IMG/VR virus record: IMGVR_UViG_2690316273_000020 | Origin: a virus | Taxonomy: Duplodnaviria > Heunggongvirae > Uroviricota > Caudoviricetes | Reading direction: 5' to 3' (one strand) | DNA: 26,408 nucleotides | Shown: positions 288-26,408 of the stretch, piece after piece | Numbering within the stretch: the first letter of the stretch is position 1 | How the letters are laid out: each line of letters begins with the position of its first letter | Position numbers and translations under genes: made by a program | The notes under the pieces: model-generated | The model's input: the letters and a program-made list of their open reading frames with translations, nothing else | Told to the model about the DNA's origin: nothing | The model's database searches: none

Positions 288-665
288 TTATTGATTTTTT
301 CTGTGCTGTGGTTTAAACAAACTACTGATAAATAAGAAACACAATGCCCCCAGCGCACACCAGAACACCGCACTTAATAACCATGCCAGCTCTTGCCAGA
401 ATGAGCGCGTCGGTGAAAAAAACAGCCGCATAATGAGCATCGAACAGGGTGCCGCCAGCATTGCGCCAAACAGAGGTTTCAGGACTTCTCTACGATGTGA
501 AAAGAAGCTGGCAACTGCACCAGGAAGAATGAAAAATAGCAAACCGATTTCAGGATGCCCGGCAGCCCGAAAAGCGCCTTTCATGTGCGTCGCCAGAAAA
601 AGACACACCACAATGAAGAGGACAAAACAGCAGATTGCCCCCGCCCAACGTTGTTTATGTTTCAC
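288..665 (-). CDS. ybjM: Inner-membrane protein YbjM
   Basis: 125-aa hydrophobic ORF starting MKHKQRWAGAICCFVLFIV; matches remembered E. coli YbjM and the conserved grxA-ybjM-ybjL neighbourhood. Confidence 0.8.
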   Translation of the reverse strand: MKHKQRWAGAICCFVLFIVVCLFLATHMKGAFRAAGHPEIGLLFFILPGAVASFFSHRREVLKPLFGAMLAAPCSMLIMRLFFSPTRSFWQELAWLLSAVFWCALGALCFLFISSLFKPQHRKNQ

Positions 666-934: not shown

Positions 935-2620
935 GTGAATATAAACGTCGCCGAATTGTTAAATGGGAATTACATTCTGTTATTATTTGTGGTCCTCGCG
1001 CTTGGGCTATGTCTCGGGAAATTACGACTTGGTTCGATCCAACTAGGTAATTCCATTGGCGTTTTAGTCGTATCGCTGTTATTAGGCCAACAACATTTCA
1101 GCATTAACACCGACGCGCTTAATCTTGGCTTTATGCTGTTTATTTTCTGCGTCGGGGTCGAAGCCGGACCGAACTTTTTTTCCATTTTTTTTCGCGATGG
1201 GAAAAATTACCTAATGTTAGCACTGGTGATGGTTGGCAGTGCGCTGGTGATCGCCTTAGGGTTAGGTAAGCTGTTTGGCTGGGATATTGGCCTGACGGCC
1301 GGTATGTTAGCTGGCTCTATGACGTCGACACCGGTTCTGGTCGGTGCTGGCGATACACTGCGTCATTCCGGCATGGAAAGCAGGCAGCTCTCACTGGCAC
1401 TGGATAATCTGAGCCTCGGGTATGCCTTAACCTATTTAATCGGTCTGGTGAGTTTGATTGTTGGTGCGCGTTACTTGCCGAAATTGCAGCATCAGGACTT
1501 ACAGACCAGCGCCCAGCAAATCGCCCGCGAACGTGGCCTGGACACTGATGCCAACCGTAAGGTTTATTTACCGGTGATCCGCGCCTACCGCGTCGGCCCG
1601 GAGCTGGTGGCCTGGACCGACGGCAAAAATCTGCGTGAACTGGGTATTTATCGACAAACTGGCTGCTACATTGAACGTATTCGACGTAACGGGATTCTGG
1701 CGAATCCAGACGGTGATGCTGTGCTACAAATGGGCGATGAAATAGCGTTGGTAGGCTATCCCGACGCCCACGCACGACTCGATCCCAGCTTCCGTAACGG
1801 CAAAGAAGTTTTCGATCGTGACCTTCTCGACATGCGTATCGTCACTGAAGAAGTGGTCGTTAAAAACCATAACGCCGTGGGCAAACGTCTCGCACAACTG
1901 AAGTTGACCGATCACGGTTGCTTCCTTAACCGCGTCATTCGTAGCCAGATTGAGATGCCGATAGATGACAACGTCGTGCTTAACAAAGGTGACGTTTTAC
2001 AAGTCAGCGGCGATGCCCGTCGCGTAAAAACCATCGCCGATCGCATCGGCTTTATCTCGATTCACAGCCAGGTCACTGACTTGCTGGCATTCTGCGCCTT
2101 CTTTGTTATTGGGCTGATGATCGGGATGATCACCTTCCAGTTCAGCACATTCAGTTTCGGCATGGGGAACGCTGCCGGGTTGTTATTCGCCGGAATTATG
2201 CTGGGATTTATGCGCGCTAACCACCCGACCTTCGGTTACATTCCGCAGGGTGCATTAAGCATGGTGAAAGAGTTCGGCTTAATGGTGTTTATGGCAGGCG
2301 TTGGTCTGAGCGCCGGTAGCGGTATTAATAACGGCCTGGGCGCGATTGGCGGTCAGATGTTGATTGCCGGATTGATTGTCAGTCTTGTGCCAGTGGTTAT
2401 CTGTTTCTTGTTCGGTGCTTATGTATTGCGAATGAACCGCGCACTGTTGTTCGGCGCAATGATGGGCGCACGCACCTGCGCGCCGGCAATGGAGATCATC
2501 AGTGATACAGCTCGCAGTAACATCCCGGCGCTGGGCTATGCGGGCACCTATGCAATCGCCAACGTCCTGCTGACGCTGGCAGGGACAATCATCGTCATGG
2601 TATGGCCAGGATTAGGATAA
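935..2620 (+). CDS. ybjL: Putative transporter YbjL (AAE family, two RCK_C/TrkA-C-like domains)
   Basis: 561-aa ORF with N- and C-terminal multi-TM blocks and a soluble central region; length and neighbourhood match E. coli ybjL. Confidence 0.85.
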
Positions 2621-2855: not shown

Positions 2856-3074
2856 TCAAAGAGAGAGCGCCACCTGTCCTGATTTCATTGGATGCGGCTG
2901 AACCGGATTTGACTCTTTTGGCGTTGCAATCGAACGAACAAAAGTTTCATGGGTAACAAAAGTATGGCTGCAGTTAATGTTCTGGCACTGGTTGTAACGC
3001 TCTTTGGTCAATGAAGATACCTGAAAACTGCTGCGAGTATGGGCGGCACTTCCACACAGTGGGCAAATCATCAT
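2856..3074 (-). CDS. ogr: Ogr/Delta-family zinc-finger late-gene activator
   Basis: MMICPLCGSAAHTRSS...CQNINCSHTF has the CxxC...CxxxxC pattern and length (72 aa from the MM start) of P2 Ogr. GGAG lies 9 nt upstream of the ATG at 3074; the longer ORF to 3107 begins with GTG. Confidence 0.8.
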   Translation of the reverse strand: MMICPLCGSAAHTRSSFQVSSLTKERYNQCQNINCSHTFVTHETFVRSIATPKESNPVQPHPMKSGQVALSL

Positions 3075-3164
3075 TTTTCGAGTTCTCCCCATTTTTGCTA
3101 AATTCACAATAATGATACCGCATTATTCCATTTTGAAAACTTAAAAGTTCTCCATTGCGAAGAA

Positions 3165-4265
3165 TCATTCCATTTCGAAATCATCAATCTTCACTTCAAG
3201 CTCCAGACTGGTCGTAAAACCGTTATCCGGGCTGACGGTATGTGTCAGAGTCGTAATGGTCCATTCCGCATCATCTATCGGCTGTTTAAAACCACTGACC
3301 TTCACAGGCATTTCCGTGTAGAGATCTGCCCGCCCTTCCGCCAGTTGTAGCGAGAATGACGCAACGCCGCGTTGCAGGCGTTCCCACTGCATTTTTGCCG
3401 CTCGTTCGGCGTTGCTCCGGTTGGCATAAGTGCGATTAAGTACCAGCACGTTTTCATCCGTCCCCACCAGGTAATCGCCCTGCTTCGCTTCCGGCTCTTT
3501 CTTCTGCTTCTTAGTCCTGTGCTTACGCTTCACCGTAGTGCTTTCTTTCTTCGCGGGTTCGCGGGTATGCAACCAGCTGGCAATTACCCCCGTGTAGGCT
3601 CCGCGATCTGCCAGGGTAAAGCGGTGACTGTCGCCGTCCTTGCGTGTGATAGTGATCACCGGCAGTGGTTTACCAGTGGCGCTTTTGCCCTGTCCCTGCC
3701 GGATGAATAACAGATTGCCATTTTTCACCGACGCGATGGCACCGTACTGGCGCGCCAGCCGCATCAGAAAACTGCCGTCACTCTCATTAGTCTGGTCTAT
3801 ATGCTCCACGGGCTTATCCGACAGGTCTTTACCCAGTGCCATCTTCAGCTTGTGACGCGCGGCTATTTCCTTCACCACTTCCCCGACAGTGGTCTTGTGC
3901 CACGATTTTTCACGGCGGGTATTCAGCGTTTCCCTAAAATCAGCACTTCGCGCCCGGATAGTCAGGCGATCCGGTGCGCCAGTGTGTTCAATCTCGTCCA
4001 CCGTGAATGCCCCTTTCGGGAAAAGCGGCTGCCCCTTCCAGCCCAGCGCCAGCGTAATGACCGCACCACGGCGCGGCAGCACGATTTTTCCGTCGGCGTC
4101 GTCCAGCTCCAGATCAAGCTGGTCCGCTTCAAAGCCCCGGTTATCCGTCAGCGTAAGCCCCATCAGGCGGTTGTCCAGCACAGTGGTGATATCCTTGCCT
4201 TCAATACTGATGCTGAATGCGGGAGTTTTGTTGCCTTTGTTAAGCAATTCAGAGCTGAAATTCAC
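3165..4265 (-). CDS. D: Tail protein D (late control gene D product)
   Basis: 366-aa ORF in the P2 gpD position next to ogr; sequence recognised as gpD-like. Confidence 0.88.
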   Translation of the reverse strand: MNFSSELLNKGNKTPAFSISIEGKDITTVLDNRLMGLTLTDNRGFEADQLDLELDDADGKIVLPRRGAVITLALGWKGQPLFPKGAFTVDEIEHTGAPDRLTIRARSADFRETLNTRREKSWHKTTVGEVVKEIAARHKLKMALGKDLSDKPVEHIDQTNESDGSFLMRLARQYGAIASVKNGNLLFIRQGQGKSATGKPLPVITITRKDGDSHRFTLADRGAYTGVIASWLHTREPAKKESTTVKRKHRTKKQKKEPEAKQGDYLVGTDENVLVLNRTYANRSNAERAAKMQWERLQRGVASFSLQLAEGRADLYTEMPVKVSGFKQPIDDAEWTITTLTHTVSPDNGFTTSLELEVKIDDFEME

Positions 4266-10144: not shown

Positions 10145-10711
10145 TCAGGGGGATTCATTACTCTTATTTGCCGGAAATTTTCTATAAATTGTGGAAACAC
10201 CCACATCAAAAATCAGTGCAATACGCTGTCTTGATTCTCTGGCCTCGAGTAAGCGTCCAATCTGTGCCCACTGTTCGGTGGTCAACTTAGGACGGCGTCC
10301 ACCTACTCTGCCTTTATCACGAGCTGCAGCCAGCCCCGCCCTGGTACGTTCAACTATCAGTTCGCGTTCCATTTCAGCCAGGGCCCCCATGACATGAAAA
10401 AAGAAACGGCCCATTGGGGTGCTGGTATCAATACTGTCAGTCAGGCTTCGGAAATTCACGCCACGCTGACGCAACTCTTCTATCAGCGTAACAAGATGCC
10501 GCATACTGCGCCCCAACCTGTCCAGCTTCCAGACAACCAGAGTGTCTCCTGCCGATAGTGTCCTGAGCAGTTTTTTAAGCCCCGGTCTGTCGGACTTAGT
10601 GCCACTGATTTTGTCCTCAAAAATCCGCTCACATCCCGCGCAGTTCAGTGCATTACGTTGCAAATCTGTGTTCTGGTCATTTGTTGACACGCGTACATAG
10701 CCAATAAGCAT
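10145..10711 (-). CDS. Serine recombinase, DNA invertase of the Hin/Gin/Cin/Pin family
   Basis: MLIGYVRVSTNDQNTDLQRNAL... is near-collinear with Mu Gin, including the catalytic Ser in YVRVSTNDQ and a C-terminal HTH. AAGGAG lies 6 nt upstream of the ATG at 10711. Confidence 0.9.
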   Translation of the reverse strand: MLIGYVRVSTNDQNTDLQRNALNCAGCERIFEDKISGTKSDRPGLKKLLRTLSAGDTLVVWKLDRLGRSMRHLVTLIEELRQRGVNFRSLTDSIDTSTPMGRFFFHVMGALAEMERELIVERTRAGLAAARDKGRVGGRRPKLTTEQWAQIGRLLEARESRQRIALIFDVGVSTIYRKFPANKSNESP

Positions 10712-10766
10712 GATCATCTCCTTGAATAAAAATCGGGGATGATGCCAGTTAGTCGTAATCGCTGCA

Positions 10767-10792
10767 TTTTCTTATACGTTGGTTTGGGAGAA
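10767..10792. repeat. Invertase crossover site (gix/hix-like), proximal to the invertase gene
   Basis: ttttcttatacgttggtttgggagaa is the reverse complement of 12625-12650 at 23 of 26 positions; half-site TTCTCCCAAACC resembles Gin/Hin half-sites. Confidence 0.65.
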
Positions 10793-11137
10793 GCGGCGAA
10801 AAGGGATGTGGGCACAGGAGATAATCAGATACCGGATATGGGAGCATTCGCTTCTGGTTCGGGATGGTTCAGGCTACCAGGTGGATATATTGTTCAGTTT
10901 GGCACTTTTTCAGGAAACACGACCCGCTTTATCAGTGGACACTTCCCTATACCATTCCCTAATCAGCCGATGGTTTCAGTCAGTGTTATGTCTGATGCCG
11001 TTCAGTCAGACCCGTCGAATCCTGCCCCGCAGGTTTTGTCTGTAAATTTTGAACATATCAGTAATTCAGCGTGGCGTGTGGCAACCAGTGATATCTCACA
11101 GCAATACAGATTCAGTTATATTTCGATAGGACGGTAG
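10793..11137 (+). CDS. Alternative tail-fibre C-terminal segment (no own start; fuses to constant H after inversion)
   Basis: The frame is open across the crossover site (..FLYVGLGEAAKRD..), mirroring ..LSYLGLGEGSALP.. at the H crossover. It ends at 11137 and is followed by its own tfa gene. Confidence 0.6.
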   Translation, partial: AAKRDVGTGDNQIPDMGAFASGSGWFRLPGGYIVQFGTFSGNTTRFISGHFPIPFPNQPMVSVSVMSDAVQSDPSNPAPQVLSVNFEHISNSAWRVATSDISQQYRFSYISIGR

Positions 11138-11139
11138 AA

Positions 11140-11580
11140 ATGCAGAAATATATTTTCAGTGCCGATAAAAATGCGTTTTTCCCTGTGGAGCTTAAAATCG
11201 CTTATCAGGAATCCGGCGAATGGCCCGGTGATGGAATCGAAATTGACGACACTGTTGCCGCCGAATTTATGAAGGAAGCACCAGAAGGAAAATACAGAGG
11301 TGTCATCGACGGAATGCCTGCATGGATTGATATTCCACCGCCAACTCATGAGGAACAAATTGCCGCAGCCGAACTGGAAAAGCAGCAATTGATTAATCAG
11401 GTCAACGAATACACACACAGTAAGCAATGGCCTGGTAAAGCGGCGATTGGTCGCCTGAAAGGTGAGGAACTGGCGCAATATAATTTGTGGCTGGATTATC
11501 TGGACGCACTGGAACTGGTCGATACTTCCAGTGCGCCAGATATTGAATGGCCTACGCCTCCGTCAGTTCAGGCCAGATGA
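11140..11580 (+). CDS. Alternative tail-fibre assembly chaperone (Tfa/U'-like)
   Basis: 146-aa ORF whose C-terminus (LDYLDALELVDTSSAPDIEWP) parallels that of G (LDYIDAVTATDTSTAPDVIWP). Convergent with G, overlapping by 29 nt. Confidence 0.75.
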   Translation: MQKYIFSADKNAFFPVELKIAYQESGEWPGDGIEIDDTVAAEFMKEAPEGKYRGVIDGMPAWIDIPPPTHEEQIAAAELEKQQLINQVNEYTHSKQWPGKAAIGRLKGEELAQYNLWLDYLDALELVDTSSAPDIEWPTPPSVQAR

Positions 11581-22128: not shown

Positions 22129-23895
22129 ATGAACACCACACTGACACCCGCAGATCTCGATCCCCGTCGGCAGGCCATGCTGCTGTACTTTCAGGGATAC
22201 CGCGTCGCCCGCATTGCTGAAATGCTGGGCGAGAAAGTTGCAACTGTTCACAGCTGGAAAAAACGCGACAAGTGGGGTGACTATGGGCCGCTGGATCAGA
22301 TGCAGCTCACCACCGCCGCACGCTACTGCCAGCTCATTATGAAGGAGCACAAAGAAGGGAAAGATTTCAAAGAGATTGACCTGCTGGCGCGCCAGTCGGA
22401 GCGCCACGCGCGGATCGGCAAGTTTAACAATGGCGGCAACGAAGCCGATTTAAACCCTAACGTCGCCAACCGCAACAAAGGCCCACGCCGTCAGCCGGAA
22501 AAGAATGTTTTCACCGATGAACAGATTGAGAAGCTGGAAGAAATCTTCCATTCCTCCATGTTCAACTACCAGCGCCACTGGTGGGAAGCCGGAAAAACCA
22601 ACCGCATCCGCAACCTGCTGAAGTCACGCCAGATCGGCGCAACCTTCTATTTTGCCCGTGAAGCCCTGATTGACGCCCTGCTGACCGGACGTAACCAGAT
22701 TTTCCTTTCCGCCAGCAAGGCACAGGCCCACGTCTTTAAGCAGTACATCTTCGACTTCGCCAAAGAAGTGGAGGTGGAGCTGAAAGGTGATCCGATGGTG
22801 CTTCCTAACGGTGCCACGCTTTACTTCCTCGGCACCAATGCCCGCACTGCCCAGAGTTATCACGGCAACCTGTATCTGGATGAATATTTCTGGATACCGA
22901 AATTTCAGGAGCTGCGTAAAGTGGCTTCCGGTATGGCTATTCACAAAAAATGGCGACAAACCTATTTTTCCACGCCATCAAGCCTGACCCACAGTGCTTA
23001 TCCGTTCTGGTCCGGTGCGCTGTTCAACCGTGGACGCAACAAAGCCGACAAGGTGGACATCGACCTGTCCCACAGCAATCTGGCCCCCGGCCTGCTGTGC
23101 GCAGACGGGCAATACCGCCAGATAGTCACCGTGGAAGATGCGGTGCGCGGCGGCTGCAACCTGTTCGACCTTGACCAGTTGCGCATGGAGTACAGCCCGG
23201 ACGAATACCAGAACCTGCTGATGTGCGAGTTTGTGGACGATCTCGCGTCCGTGTTTCCGCTCAGCGAGCTGCAGGCGTGCATGGTGGACAGTTGGGAAGT
23301 CTGGACCGACTTTCATGCACTGGCCCTTCGCCCGTTTGGGTGGCGCGAAGTGTGGATCGGTTATGACCCGGCAAAAGGTACGCAGAACGGCGACAGCGCC
23401 GGATGCGTGGTGGTGGCACCGCCAGCCGTGCCGGGCGGTAAGTTCCGTATTCTTGAGCGCCACCAGTGGCGCGGGATGGACTTCCGCGCCCAGGCGGACG
23501 CCATCAAAAAACTGACCGAACAGTACAACGTGACATATATCGGCATCGACTCGACGGGTGTCGGTCACGGGGTTTACGAGAACGTGAAAGCGTTTTTTCC
23601 TGCCGTCCGGGAGTTTGTCTACAACCCCAACGTTAAAAATGCCCTGGTACTCAAGGCATACGACATTATCAGCCACCGCCGTCTGGAGTTTGACGCCGGG
23701 CACACCGACATTGCGCAGTCATTCATGGCAATCCGTCGCGCCACCACCGCCAGTGGCAACCGCCCGACCTATGAAGCCAGCCGCAGCGAAGAAGCCAGCC
23801 ACGCCGATCTGGCCTGGGCAACGATGCACGCACTGTTTAATGAACCGCTGCAGGGCGAGTCCGCCAATACAAGCAATATTGTGGAGATTTTTTGA
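22129..23895 (+). CDS. P: Terminase large (ATPase) subunit P
   Basis: 588-aa ORF transcribed divergently from O; gpP-like with an N-terminal HTH-like segment. Confidence 0.9.
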   Translation: MNTTLTPADLDPRRQAMLLYFQGYRVARIAEMLGEKVATVHSWKKRDKWGDYGPLDQMQLTTAARYCQLIMKEHKEGKDFKEIDLLARQSERHARIGKFNNGGNEADLNPNVANRNKGPRRQPEKNVFTDEQIEKLEEIFHSSMFNYQRHWWEAGKTNRIRNLLKSRQIGATFYFAREALIDALLTGRNQIFLSASKAQAHVFKQYIFDFAKEVEVELKGDPMVLPNGATLYFLGTNARTAQSYHGNLYLDEYFWIPKFQELRKVASGMAIHKKWRQTYFSTPSSLTHSAYPFWSGALFNRGRNKADKVDIDLSHSNLAPGLLCADGQYRQIVTVEDAVRGGCNLFDLDQLRMEYSPDEYQNLLMCEFVDDLASVFPLSELQACMVDSWEVWTDFHALALRPFGWREVWIGYDPAKGTQNGDSAGCVVVAPPAVPGGKFRILERHQWRGMDFRAQADAIKKLTEQYNVTYIGIDSTGVGHGVYENVKAFFPAVREFVYNPNVKNALVLKAYDIISHRRLEFDAGHTDIAQSFMAIRRATTASGNRPTYEASRSEEASHADLAWATMHALFNEPLQGESANTSNIVEIF

Positions 23896-24941
23896 TGGGA
23901 AAGAGTAAGAAAAACCGCGCTGCGGCGATGAATCACATCCAGCATAAAAGCCAGACTTCAGCCGAAGCATTCAGCTTCGGCGATCCCGTTCCTGTTCTGG
24001 ACCGCCGAGAATTACTGGACTATGTGGAATGCGTACAGATGGACCGTTGGTATGAGCCGCCCGTCAGCTTTGACGGACTGGCGCGCACCTTCCGCGCCGC
24101 CGTGCATCACAGTTCCCCGATTGCAGTAAAGTGCAACATTCTGACCAGTACCTATATCCCTCATCCGCTGCTCAGCCAGCAGGCTTTTTCGCGTTTTGTG
24201 CAGGACTATCTGGTATTTGGTAACGCCTACCTGGAGAAACGCACGAACCGCTTCGGTGAAGTTATCGCCCTTGAACCGACCCTGGCAAAATACACCCGAC
24301 GCGGATTAGACCTGGATACCTACTGGTTTGTGCAATACGGCATGACTACGCAGCCGTATCAGTTCACGAAAGGCAGCATTTTTCATCTGATGGAACCGGA
24401 CATCAACCAGGAGATCTACGGCCTGCCCGGTTATCTTTCTGCCATTCCGTCAGCCCTGCTCAACGAGTCCGCCACGCTGTTCCGCCGCAAGTATTACATT
24501 AACGGCAGTCATGCAGGCTTCATCATGTACATGACCGATGCAGCGCAGAACCAGGAGGATGTGAACAACCTCCGCAATGCGATGAAAAGCGCCAAAGGTC
24601 CTGGTAACTTCCGTAACCTGTTTATGTACTCGCCTAACGGTAAAAAGGACGGGCTTCAGATTATCCCGTTGTCAGAAGTGGCGGCGAAGGATGAGTTCCT
24701 GAATATCAAGAACGTGAGCCGGGACGACATGATGGCGGCGCATCGTGTGCCGCCACAAATGATGGGGATAATGCCTAATAATGTCGGGGGGTTTGGGGAT
24801 GTAGAAAAGGCAAGCCGTGTCTTTGTCCGCAACGAGTTGATACCTCTGCAGAAACGCCTACAGGAACTTAACAACTGGCTGGGCGATGAAGTTATACGTT
24901 TCGAGCCGTACACTTTAGATATTCAGAATGAAAAGAAATAA
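23892..24941 (+). CDS. Q: Portal protein Q
   Basis: 349-aa ORF overlapping the P stop by 4 nt; gpQ-like. Confidence 0.9.
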   Translation: MMGKSKKNRAAAMNHIQHKSQTSAEAFSFGDPVPVLDRRELLDYVECVQMDRWYEPPVSFDGLARTFRAAVHHSSPIAVKCNILTSTYIPHPLLSQQAFSRFVQDYLVFGNAYLEKRTNRFGEVIALEPTLAKYTRRGLDLDTYWFVQYGMTTQPYQFTKGSIFHLMEPDINQEIYGLPGYLSAIPSALLNESATLFRRKYYINGSHAGFIMYMTDAAQNQEDVNNLRNAMKSAKGPGNFRNLFMYSPNGKKDGLQIIPLSEVAAKDEFLNIKNVSRDDMMAAHRVPPQMMGIMPNNVGGFGDVEKASRVFVRNELIPLQKRLQELNNWLGDEVIRFEPYTLDIQNEKK

Positions 24942-24968
24942 AAGTTAGCGAATAAAAATCATTAGCAT

Positions 24969-24989
24969 AGGCCGCAAACTGAGCGGCCT
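24969..24989. terminator. Putative bidirectional hairpin terminator between Q and the convergent cargo ORF
   Basis: aggccgc-aaactga-gcggcct forms a 7-bp GC stem; U-tracts on both strands are weak. Confidence 0.4.
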
Positions 24990-24995
24990 TATTCA

Positions 24996-25265
24996 TTACC
25001 AATTTCTTTTTTCGGAGTTTAGCCAATCACCGCATGGATAATATCTTGACGCCCATTCACCTTGTAAACGAGCTACAAACAGAATATCGTTACTATCGAC
25101 CCTGGCTTGGAGTCCGTCACGCAGTTGAGTTGCGGTCAGCGTTGTATCTACTAACCAAAATGATTCAAGATATTTACAGTATGTAAATTGCTTTAGATAG
25201 TCAAAAACTTCATCGTAGTTTCTTCCCGGAGCCTTCAAGTCATAGGTTATACAATAAATAGCCAT
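24996..25265 (-). CDS. Hypothetical protein (89 aa), AT-rich cargo between Q and cos
   Basis: ATG start with GGAG 8 nt upstream; alternating hydrophobic pattern (IYCITYDL, NYDEVFDYLKQF, WLVDT, ILFVARL) suggests a small alpha/beta fold. No family recognised. Confidence 0.5.
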   Translation of the reverse strand: MAIYCITYDLKAPGRNYDEVFDYLKQFTYCKYLESFWLVDTTLTATQLRDGLQARVDSNDILFVARLQGEWASRYYPCGDWLNSEKRNW

Positions 25266-25268
25266 TCT

Positions 25269-25451
25269 CTAAGCTCCGCATTTTTTATCATTTGGGGAAC
25301 ATCTTAACCTGCGACATTTGCGGCAATACGATTGAGGGATCAGCCGCTCTCCTTCCATAGTTCTAAAACCAAACACTTCTTCAATTTTGTTCAAATCACC
25401 ACTTGCAATAACCCCACAGCAGGGGCAGACAGCCTCAATTTGAAATGCCAT
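25269..25451 (-). CDS. Hypothetical Cys-rich small protein (about 60 aa; possible zinc ribbon)
   Basis: Start MAFQIEAVCPCCG.. has GGAG 6 nt upstream; the ORF-track version begins with TTG at 25514. Cys cluster CPCC ... CRKCRRLRC; basic C-terminus. Confidence 0.45.
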   Translation of the reverse strand: MAFQIEAVCPCCGVIASGDLNKIEEVFGFRTMEGERLIPQSYCRKCRRLRCSPNDKKCGA

Positions 25452-25550
25452 GTCTATCTCCATTCCACATGTTGAATGTAGGGTAATACTTCCTTTCAAG
25501 CAAAAATGAGACAAGGATCTTGAAACCTAATTTAAACTTGCTTGCGCGCG

Positions 25551-25569
25551 CTCGTATCCCCGCCACGCC
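25551..25569. other. cos-like site (P2-family 19-nt cohesive-end sequence)
   Basis: The minus strand reads GGCGTGGCGGGGATACGAG; the first 13 nt match the remembered P2/186 cos ends (GGCG[A/T]GGCGGGGAAAGCA..). It is a GC-rich island in AT-rich DNA about 610 bp from the Q stop. Confidence 0.45.
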
Positions 25570-25618
25570 TGCCCGCTTTATGTAGTAGTTTTCATGCAGG
25601 TGCATGATCTACGCGAAA

Positions 25619-25638
25619 GCCCGCCAGTTCTGGCGGGC
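25619..25638 (-). terminator. Possible weak intrinsic terminator for the large cargo ORF
   Basis: 8-bp GC stem gcccgcca/tggcgggc followed on the minus strand by UUUCGCGU. Confidence 0.3.
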
Positions 25639-25685
25639 CCTAGCAAAACGATCCTCAAACGATCATGCGATCTCATGCAGCATAG

Positions 25686-26408
25686 TCATGCACGATCATT
25701 TGACTCAGCATCTGCTGCACGCTTGCTGCGCGAAGATGCACTTTTACTATCAATCTTTCGACAGTTCTTTCTATCCCTGGCTTCATTTTCTTTAAATTTG
25801 TTATATGTCTCAGTATCAAAAAACGAAATTGTTTCAACCTCATCTTTTGGTATGAGCACACGGAAATCTTCGATATTAAGCCGAGACATTCCACTTATCA
25901 CACCACTATCAAGATAATGTTGGTGATAGTTAGTCGTGATACTAATCGTTAGATCATCTTTATCCCGATATCCGCTTAACATCGGGAGAAGTTCAAGGTG
26001 CTCTGAAAGCCCGTTTTCTAACGCCGGACAAGTAACAAAACCAACATAGATTTTGCGAGACGACAGAGTTGCTATGATCGGAAACTGTCTTGCGGACGCT
26101 TCCATGAGTAATGATTCGAAAGCGTTATTACCCACAGCTTTAGCTAAGGCATCCCAGCGACGATCTCCACGTGATGTGCGTAACTTATTTCCAAAACCTG
26201 AAATCGCAGCGAGGACAATTGAAATCATAACCCATGCTATCTGTTTGATTTCATTTATTCTTTGAAGTTTGTCTTTCGATGAAGACAACATGCCATTAAA
26301 ACTGTCAGGTGTTAGATTCAAGGCATTAGCCAGCCAACGAAACCCTCCGCTGACGTTCAAAATAAAGGTGAAAAAACCGCTGTCACGAACGGTGCAATAG
26401 TGATCCAC
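25686..26408 (-). CDS. Hypothetical protein, 5'-truncated by the window edge (at least 240 aa visible), cargo in the old/tin-equivalent position
   Basis: Long ORF in AT-rich DNA running off the window; one predicted TM helix (IAWVMISIVLAAISGFG); low-complexity basic/acidic C-terminal tail. No motif I recognise. Confidence 0.6.
   Translation of the reverse strand: MDHYCTVRDSGFFTFILNVSGGFRWLANALNLTPDSFNGMLSSSKDKLQRINEIKQIAWVMISIVLAAISGFGNKLRTSRGDRRWDALAKAVGNNAFESLLMEASARQFPIIATLSSRKIYVGFVTCPALENGLSEHLELLPMLSGYRDKDDLTISITTNYHQHYLDSGVISGMSRLNIEDFRVLIPKDEVETISFFDTETYNKFKENEARDRKNCRKIDSKSASSRSKRAADAESNDRA

Follow-up and report, generated by a model that had tools for sequence, protein, structure and literature searches.

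We analysed a 26,408-nt window of DNA (IMG/VR virus record IMGVR_UViG_2690316273_000020), a segment of an Escherichia coli chromosome containing a P2/Fels-2-type prophage in the reverse orientation of the P2 map, which carries two small open reading frames (ORF-B and ORF-A) between the portal gene Q and the cohesive-end site (cos). Sequence comparisons indicated that both are conserved protein-coding genes under purifying selection, arranged as a tight operon in which ORF-B precedes ORF-A and which reads inward from the left cohesive end. ORF-A is predicted, from sequence and structural models, to be a stand-alone member of the Cas2 superfamily with a ferredoxin fold, lying outside bona fide Cas2, and ORF-B to be a basic, cysteine-rich orphan zinc ribbon. 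Judged by the same comparisons, the interval encoding them is a variable, moron-like insertion relative to P2, in the Q-side half of a cos-proximal hotspot. The hotspot locus was already known, both proteins belong to PHROG families that are catalogued though uncharacterised, and ORF-A is a recognisable relative of Cas2.

ORF-A matched phrog_1090 (E 4e-30) and ORF-B matched phrog_19700 (E 6e-42), two PHROG families of unassigned function. The B–A pair was found in P2-like prophages of Klebsiella, Kluyvera, Citrobacter and a second E. coli lineage, as well as on one metagenomic contig. Homologues displayed 44-99% identity for ORF-A and 48-97% for ORF-B. Comparisons between the Escherichia, Klebsiella, Kluyvera, Citrobacter and metagenomic copies, for which the synonymous substitution rate (dS) reached 1-1.8 or was saturated, gave ratios of nonsynonymous to synonymous substitution (dN/dS) of 0.10-0.43 for ORF-A and 0.04-0.13 for ORF-B. 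A gap of only 3 nt separates the ORF-B stop codon (25271-25269) from the ATG of ORF-A (25265); this spacing was unchanged in all six related P2-like loci, and the operon ends at a hairpin that it shares with Q. Since the phrog_19700 profile covered 60/60 positions from the ATG, this codon was assigned as the start of ORF-B; a longer version initiated at an upstream TTG (81 aa) was rejected, as the profile (1-60/60) aligned to residues 22-81 and the homologues begin at the ATG. The Prokaryotic Genome Annotation Pipeline (PGAP) labelled ORF-A 'hypothetical' and did not call ORF-B in any E. coli genome examined; ORF-B is a conserved gene overlooked by standard annotation pipelines.

These results bear out most of what an earlier note, made from the letters of this DNA alone, had described in the interval: an AT-rich composition (GC content of 0.407, as compared to 0.517 in Q and 0.547 in the prophage), two co-directional ORFs on the minus strand, each with a GGAG (6-8 nt ahead of its ATG), a zinc-ribbon-like protein of about 60 aa (60 aa, with seven invariant cysteines) and a ferredoxin-like pattern in the 89-aa protein, in agreement with the fold matches reported below. 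Its statement that neither protein matched anything recognisable did not stand, since both fall into PHROG families and ORF-A into the Cas2 superfamily, where some phage annotators had already placed it. The anti-defence or superinfection-exclusion role that it put forward as plausible would be a conjecture drawn from position.

The Q-cos spacer extends from 24942 to 25550, between the Q stop (24941) and the cos core (from 25551), and is 609 nt long, in line with the figure of about 610 bp given in the note. In P2 (NC_001895), where cosL occupies positions 1-19 and the Q stop lies at 187, 167 nt separate the two (186 from the end) and hold only the tQ terminator; the contrast drawn with P2 was therefore correct, and the P2 figure of about 130 bp was not. 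Comparing the spacer across P2-like phages, as the note had suggested, revealed an empty slot in P2 and alternative cargo elsewhere, always on the same strand: Fels-2 has an ORF of 565 aa, E. coli 210221272 one of 557 aa, RE-2010 one of 554 aa labelled 'abortive infection', and phage 500465-1 a TIR-domain protein. The conserved block flanking cos was detected in 1274 of the 5426 complete E. coli genomes and the B–A cassette in 17 of the same 5426 (eight at ≥99% identity, nine at 78%), as expected for the moron-like insertion that had been proposed. The cos block matched 1279 E. coli records as well as Fels-2, RE-2010 and other phages at 90-99% identity, and the closest complete genomes, E. coli S56 and RM10466, were 98-99% identical to the window across 24800-25700.

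The gpA-gpQ region around cos has been described as a defence hotspot of P2-like phages, the counterpart of the cos-int hotspot of P4-like satellites, and the arrangement table of that study lists WP_024221516 there as 'hypothetical' (Rousset et al. 2022; PMC9122126). WP_024221516 is an ORF-A allele with 71% identity. The ORF-A/ORF-B cassette likewise lies between gpA and gpQ beside cos and is present, absent or replaced among close prophages. Its placement resembles that of P4 gop and P2 old-tin, which start 150-250 nt from cos and are directed inward, the order in P4 being cosL then gop.

The AlphaFold2 model of ORF-A had a predicted local distance difference test score (pLDDT) of 90.9, and Cas2 chains were both its top fold matches and its top PDB sequence matches. 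A profile built from 55 family members and compared with PDB sequences ranked the B. halodurans Cas2 first (E 0.03), the alignment pairing T-Y-D-L with T-Y-D-V, E-S-x-W with N-S-V-F and D-x-N-D-x-x-F-V with D-e-e-k-D-s-L-r-i. The corresponding motifs of ORF-A are Y-D-L in beta1, which contains D9, S-x-W (S-V-F in Cas2), and D-x-N-D-x-x-F-V in beta4. D9 was invariant in close homologues, was present in at least 90% of the 55 diverse family members and aligned to the Asp of the B. halodurans Cas2 TYDV motif; Cas2 has its conserved metal-binding Asp at this place, where beta1 ends. The fold matches and the profile alignment concur, and the remote homology to Cas2 therefore agrees between structure and sequence, with the beta1 Asp (D9) retained. 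Scans of Pfam and NCBIfam returned no Cas2 match above threshold, the PADLOC match to Cas2b was weak (17.9 bits, E 5e-4), and family members scored 13-21 bits on the Cas2 model, the cut-off of which is 23.8. Within the Cas2 superfamily, ORF-A belongs to a separate clade that has no name yet, with a status comparable to that of VapD or BPSL1038. Some phage records name this family 'CRISPR-associated endonuclease Cas2' or 'SinR', the former being given to an 89%-identical orthologue in a Klebsiella phage record; calling ORF-A homologues 'CRISPR-associated endonuclease Cas2' goes beyond what is known. A literature search found no study of the family.

An exhaustive HMMER search with the ORF-A family recovered 4188 clusters at E≤1e-3 and 1264 at E≤1e-10, nearly all of them stand-alone proteins of 85-95 aa. 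Fifty-eight loci, one genome per species, spanned Alpha-, Beta- and Gammaproteobacteria, Bacillota, Actinomycetota, Bacteroidota, Chloroflexota and one haloarchaeon. Clustering of ORFs within 2.5 kb at these loci revealed no conserved partner of the family, nor did scanning the 117 immediate neighbours at 60 loci with Pfam and PADLOC. These neighbours fell in 95 Pfam families, including some integrases, Bro-N/ORF6C antirepressors, XRE regulators, OLD/Gabija-type ATPases and DNA methylases; Cas1 was not among the first 25 of the 95 families listed. In the window, with the portal gene on one side and cos on the other, ORF-A had no cas1 or CRISPR array nearby. Single homologues were found in defence-like company, with Thoeris genes at one and an Eco57I-type methylase at another. 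On TARA marine contigs (L064-L067), a 64%-identical homologue shares its island with a Tae4 amidase and Thoeris-like genes (ThsB TIR; SIR2_2/STALD), and ORF-B is absent. An ORF-A-like domain was also present inside a 1507-aa protein (residues 367-433), together with Baseplate_J and CBM_5_12 domains, and was tandemly duplicated in a 184-aa protein passing the ChrB_N threshold; these two proteins hint at a use of the domain in further architectures.

Using tblastn, ORF-A homologues were detected in 52 phage records. All three Gram-positive phages examined (Enterococcus phiFL1A, Staphylococcus SN8 and a StB20-like phage) carry the homologue within the immunity region, on the strand of the repressor (in phiFL1A also that of the integrase) and antisense to the cro-antirepressor early operon. 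This position and orientation are classic for a prophage-expressed gene. In the same phages (L088, 3276-3437; L089, 3268-3429; L090, 3261-3428), the 3' end of a convergent early-operon ORF of 53-55 aa adjoins the homologue or overlaps it by a few nt. This ORF has at most one Cys and hence is not ORF-B-like; the convergent layout recurs in 3/3.

ORF-B displays invariant cysteines at C9, C11, C12, C43, C46, C51 and C58 and the conserved motifs F-G-F-R and Q-S-Y-C-R-x-C-R, and its AlphaFold2 model was of moderate confidence (pLDDT 79.5). It had no match to any Pfam family even at E≤1, and none to Ogr_Delta or to any helix-turn-helix family; NCBIfam and PADLOC likewise gave no match above threshold. 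The ORF-B family is small (about 32 clusters), and members with a named source all come from Gammaproteobacteria. At least eight loci (L071, L072, L075-L082) encode ORF-B in the absence of ORF-A, with downstream genes that differ or are lacking. In an island adjoining smpB it lies between an integrase and a GAPS4-type PD-(D/E)XK gene, and in Moritella-type islands it adjoins integrases, in both cases with no ORF-A. In a Pectobacterium P4-like element, a cos-like site with the GCATG-type repeats also found in the window is followed first by ORF-B and then by cargo genes and an integrase; the repeat-then-cos layout of the window is also seen there (L078, ~3020-3170). The idea that ORF-B is always adjacent to cos was rejected, given that the Pectobacterium element has a cos-like site and the smpB island has none. 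At L071, ORF-B precedes an unrelated, acidic 100-aa ORF; this gene was considered as a relative of ORF-A and rejected (hhalign probability 2%). Because each ORF recurs without the other, ORF-A and ORF-B are two independent small modules that P2-like phages hold together as one operon. A related zinc ribbon was noted in Shigella phage 75/02 Stx (L091, 2096-2689), where the region from the antiterminator Q to stx1A contains a hypothetical ORF of 197 aa whose C-terminus is 48% identical to ORF-B over 42 residues (phrog_34160).

Expression of the cassette was considered from its surroundings. In one locus (L001) the cassette is about 99% identical, yet the first right-arm gene is directed away from cos; the cassette would therefore have its own promoter within the 99 nt between cos and ORF-B. 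We further infer that it is expressed in the prophage. We hypothesize, with confidence about evenly divided, that ORF-B and ORF-A form an accessory cassette for the benefit of the lysogen. By analogy with Cas2, VapD and BPSL1038, ORF-A would be a small nuclease or nucleic-acid binder, dimeric and dependent on its Asp, and would harm the superinfecting phage or the infected cell, so that the phage would be excluded or the infection aborted; ORF-B would serve as a nucleic-acid- or protein-binding helper or regulator, and both would be transcribed in the prophage from the cassette's own promoter. The rarity of the cassette, the similarly oriented alternative cargo of the slot, and the published defence hotspot were together counted in favour of accessory, defence-type cargo, as were the matching geometry of P4 gop, the place of ORF-B behind the cos-like site of the Pectobacterium element, the lysogeny-side orientation of the homologues in the three Gram-positive phages, the Thoeris and methylase neighbours of single ORF-A homologues and the GAPS4 neighbour of ORF-B in the smpB island.

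Several observations weigh against this proposal. A promoter scanner reported no site upstream of ORF-B, and the candidate identified by eye (TTGCTT, 17 nt, TACATT) is weak and partly conserved; two short blocks upstream are invariant. PADLOC matched the cassette to no defence model apart from the weak Cas2 one. Fold and sequence searches with ORF-B gave no significant match outside its own family, and hence no functional lead. The AlphaFold2 monomer of ORF-A ends, after a loop, in a Trp-containing helix (78-82) where Cas2 has the beta5 strand, by which each subunit of its dimer completes the sheet of the other, and the catalytic role ascribed to D9 is assumed from Cas2 and BPSL1038. Defence likeness around the ORF-A family is only modest, with 3 OLD/Gabija-type ATPases and about 4 methylases among the 117 neighbours.

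Should the cassette protect lysogens, it would rank with the smallest known anti-phage units; it would also provide a function for thousands of 'hypothetical' Cas2-like prophage genes and bear on the old question of the role of the Cas2 fold before, or apart from, CRISPR adaptation. Should it have no measurable effect, it would merely add to the uncharacterised cargo for which the hotspot is already known. More tentatively, and with the odds against it, the unnamed Cas2 branch, with its more than 4000 sequence clusters from bacteria and one haloarchaeon, may be borne by temperate phages of Gram-negative and Gram-positive hosts alike as a one-gene, lysogen-expressed conflict effector, acting either by nuclease-type exclusion or abortive infection or as a Cas2 mimic against spacer acquisition, with ORF-B as a second mobile mini-module; under this same joint reading, the ORF-B module would be common to P2-like helpers and P4-like satellites, in cos- or integrase-proximal hotspots.

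An organisation reminiscent of toxin-antitoxin systems has to be weighed against accessory lysogen-protecting cargo. The genes are small, co-directional and 3 nt apart, the ribosome-binding site of ORF-A lies inside ORF-B, and both the pair and its spacing have been maintained despite dS above 1, as could be expected for an addiction or abortive-infection pair made of a VapD/Cas2-like endonuclease toxin (ORF-A) and a zinc-ribbon antitoxin or autoregulator (ORF-B). However, no ORF-B-like gene accompanies the ORF-A homologues of the Gram-positive phages or those at 56 of the 58 genome loci, and ORF-B is found without ORF-A, followed by different genes or none, in the loci described above. The partners are thus not obligate, which weakens this explanation, and we consider it unlikely.

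We rank slightly lower the possibility that the cassette counteracts host defences, ORF-A being a Cas2 decoy that poisons spacer acquisition by Cas1-Cas2 or the pair inhibiting another host system. E. coli and Klebsiella hosts often have type I-E CRISPR systems. ORF-A combines a Cas2 fold and Cas2 motifs with the lack of a nearby cas1 or CRISPR array, and the cassette comes first at the left end of the packaged genome, all of which would suit such a role. Yet the family extends across many phyla with no visible CRISPR link, ORF-A poorly resembles the I-E Cas2 of the hosts, and the other cargo of the slot is TIR-like or Abi-like, pointing to defence rather than anti-defence. In the three Gram-positive phages, moreover, the gene lies apart from the early lytic genes, on the lysogeny-side strand. 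Of 1511 P2-like prophages surveyed in one study, only 28 had anti-defence genes, while defence systems were common (PMC13586616).

Still less probable, in our view, is a role in the phage life cycle itself, in which ORF-B would be a small DNA-binding regulator with its targets near cos or among the late genes and ORF-A an RNA-processing factor tuning the lysis-lysogeny switch. ORF-B is basic and lies about 100-330 nt from cos in P2-like phages and in the P4-like satellite, and ORF-A homologues are located inside the immunity switch region of the Gram-positive phages, antisense to the cro/antirepressor operon. Such a role is difficult to reconcile with the absence of the cassette from P2, Fels-2 and about 99% of the E. 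coli prophages with the same cos block, which implies that it cannot be essential, with the presence of ORF-B in the smpB island away from any cos, and with its failure to match Ogr_Delta or helix-turn-helix families. That the two are chance ORFs in non-coding cos-flanking sequence, a view for which only the missing PGAP calls of ORF-B in E. coli might speak and which the earlier note had named as the outcome that would overturn it, is already refuted by the conservation pattern and can be given virtually no credence: the interval is missing from most phages having this cos, dN/dS ranges from 0.04 to 0.43, the cysteine pattern of ORF-B is invariant, ORF-A yields a confident fold model, and homology to the smpB-island copies (L075-L077) is confined to the ORF-B coding sequence.

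The coordinates of the cassette and of its surroundings are collected in Table 1.

Table 1. Positions of the cassette, cos and other features in the 26,408-nt window.
Feature	Position	Strand	Remarks
ybjM	288-665		host gene
ybjL	935-2620		host gene
ogr (prophage's own)	2856-3107	-	
terminase P	22129-23895	+	
portal gene Q	23892-24941	+	Pfam PF04860 (Phage_portal), E 1.8e-18; phrog_68, E 7e-178; left boundary of the slot, convergent with the cassette
GC-rich hairpin	24969-24989		lies between the stop codons of Q and ORF-A; the terminator scan gave a 7-bp stem, 6 of its pairs GC, followed by TATTCATT
ORF-A	24996-25265	-	89 aa, isoelectric point (pI) 4.9; predicted stand-alone Cas2-superfamily protein with ferredoxin fold
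ORF-A Shine-Dalgarno GGAG	25274-25277	-	read from sequence; 8 nt ahead of the ATG, within the 3' end of ORF-B
ORF-B	25269-25451	-	60 aa from the ATG, pI 8.6, 7 Cys, no His; predicted small zinc-ribbon protein
ORF-B Shine-Dalgarno GGAG	25458-25461	-	read from sequence; 6 nt ahead of the ATG; invariant in the six-locus alignment
candidate sigma-70 promoter	25475-25503	-	TTGCTT, 17 nt, TACATT; read by eye
cos cohesive-end core	25551-25569		19 nt; aligned to the P2 cosR/cosL junction
conserved cos-flank block	25542-25700		TCATGCA-type repeats and hairpin (repeats D1 and I5); right boundary of the slot
right-arm ORF, phrog_3630	25686-26408	-	E 3e-72; at least 240 aa, AT-rich, directed to cos, runs past the window edge; not part of the cassette

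After ogr, the genes follow in the order gpD, tail and head genes, terminase P, portal Q, Q-cos interval, cos and an AT-rich gene of the right arm. The GC-rich hairpin is placed where P2 has tQ and is probably a bidirectional terminator for the convergent Q and ORF-A. The reverse complement of the cos core, GGCGTGGCGGGGATACGAG, aligns to P2 GGCGAGGCGGGGAAAGCAC within a junction alignment covering 55 nt, and the pattern GGCGNGGCGGGGA was found at the equivalent cos position in related P2-like loci. In the cos flank, TCATGCA-type repeats were located at 25592-25605 and 25686-25699 and a perfect 9-bp hairpin at 25619-25638. An Rfam scan of 24850-25750 identified no RNA family, the sole match being a sub-threshold Trp_leader. 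The right-arm ORF had no match in Pfam, PADLOC or NCBIfam and is probably further hotspot cargo; it is unlike the right-arm cargo of the RM10466 prophage, which is otherwise 99% identical. At the other end, the host-prophage junction places an attachment-site end between ~2620 and 2856, from the end of ybjL to ogr; no tRNA gene was found across the window. A Hin/Gin-type serine invertase (10145-10717, minus strand) lies beside a C-terminal tail-fibre fragment (10739-11137, plus strand) and a tail-fibre assembly gene (11140-11580, plus strand), both of these on the strand opposite to H and G, so that 10145-11580 looks like an invertible host-range segment.

Collectively, the two proteins and their locus can be set against four known systems. 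The activators Ogr and Delta of P2 and P4 (PF04606) are, like ORF-B, small (60-80 aa) four-Cys zinc proteins of P2-/P4-type elements. ORF-B differs from them by the absence of a PF04606 match and by its Cys spacing (C-x-CC ... C-x2-C ... C ... C, instead of C-x2-C ... C-x4-C), and the prophage already has an Ogr of its own. ORF-A shares three motifs with Cas2 (PF09827/TIGR01573): Y-D-(I/V/L), whose Asp ends beta1; S-x-(F/W), aligned to S-V-F; and the acidic D..D-x-(L/F)-x-V, located before beta4. Unlike Cas2, it scores under every curated threshold, has no cas1 or CRISPR array nearby, with phage copies located in immunity regions, is modelled with a C-terminal Trp-containing helix instead of a strand, and belongs to a family conserved in its own right across its 4188 clusters. 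BPSL1038 is a CRISPR-independent dsDNA nuclease, and ORF-A resembles nucleases of the BPSL1038/VapD type in being a stand-alone Cas2-like protein without CRISPR and in conserving the beta1 Asp (PMC10491678). It is only 9% identical to BPSL1038, has D9 and E34-S35 in place of the D11(X20)SST motif, and is phage-borne and paired here with a zinc ribbon; its nuclease role is proposed by analogy. The closest parallel in position is the cargo of the P2/P4 hotspots (PMC9122126): the cassette occupies the same locus, is AT-rich and highly variable between otherwise similar prophages, and is directed inward from cos, as are P4 gop and, on the other arm, P2 old-tin. It differs from this cargo in being listed only as 'hypothetical', outside the named systems, and in its unusually small size of two genes and 149 codons in total.

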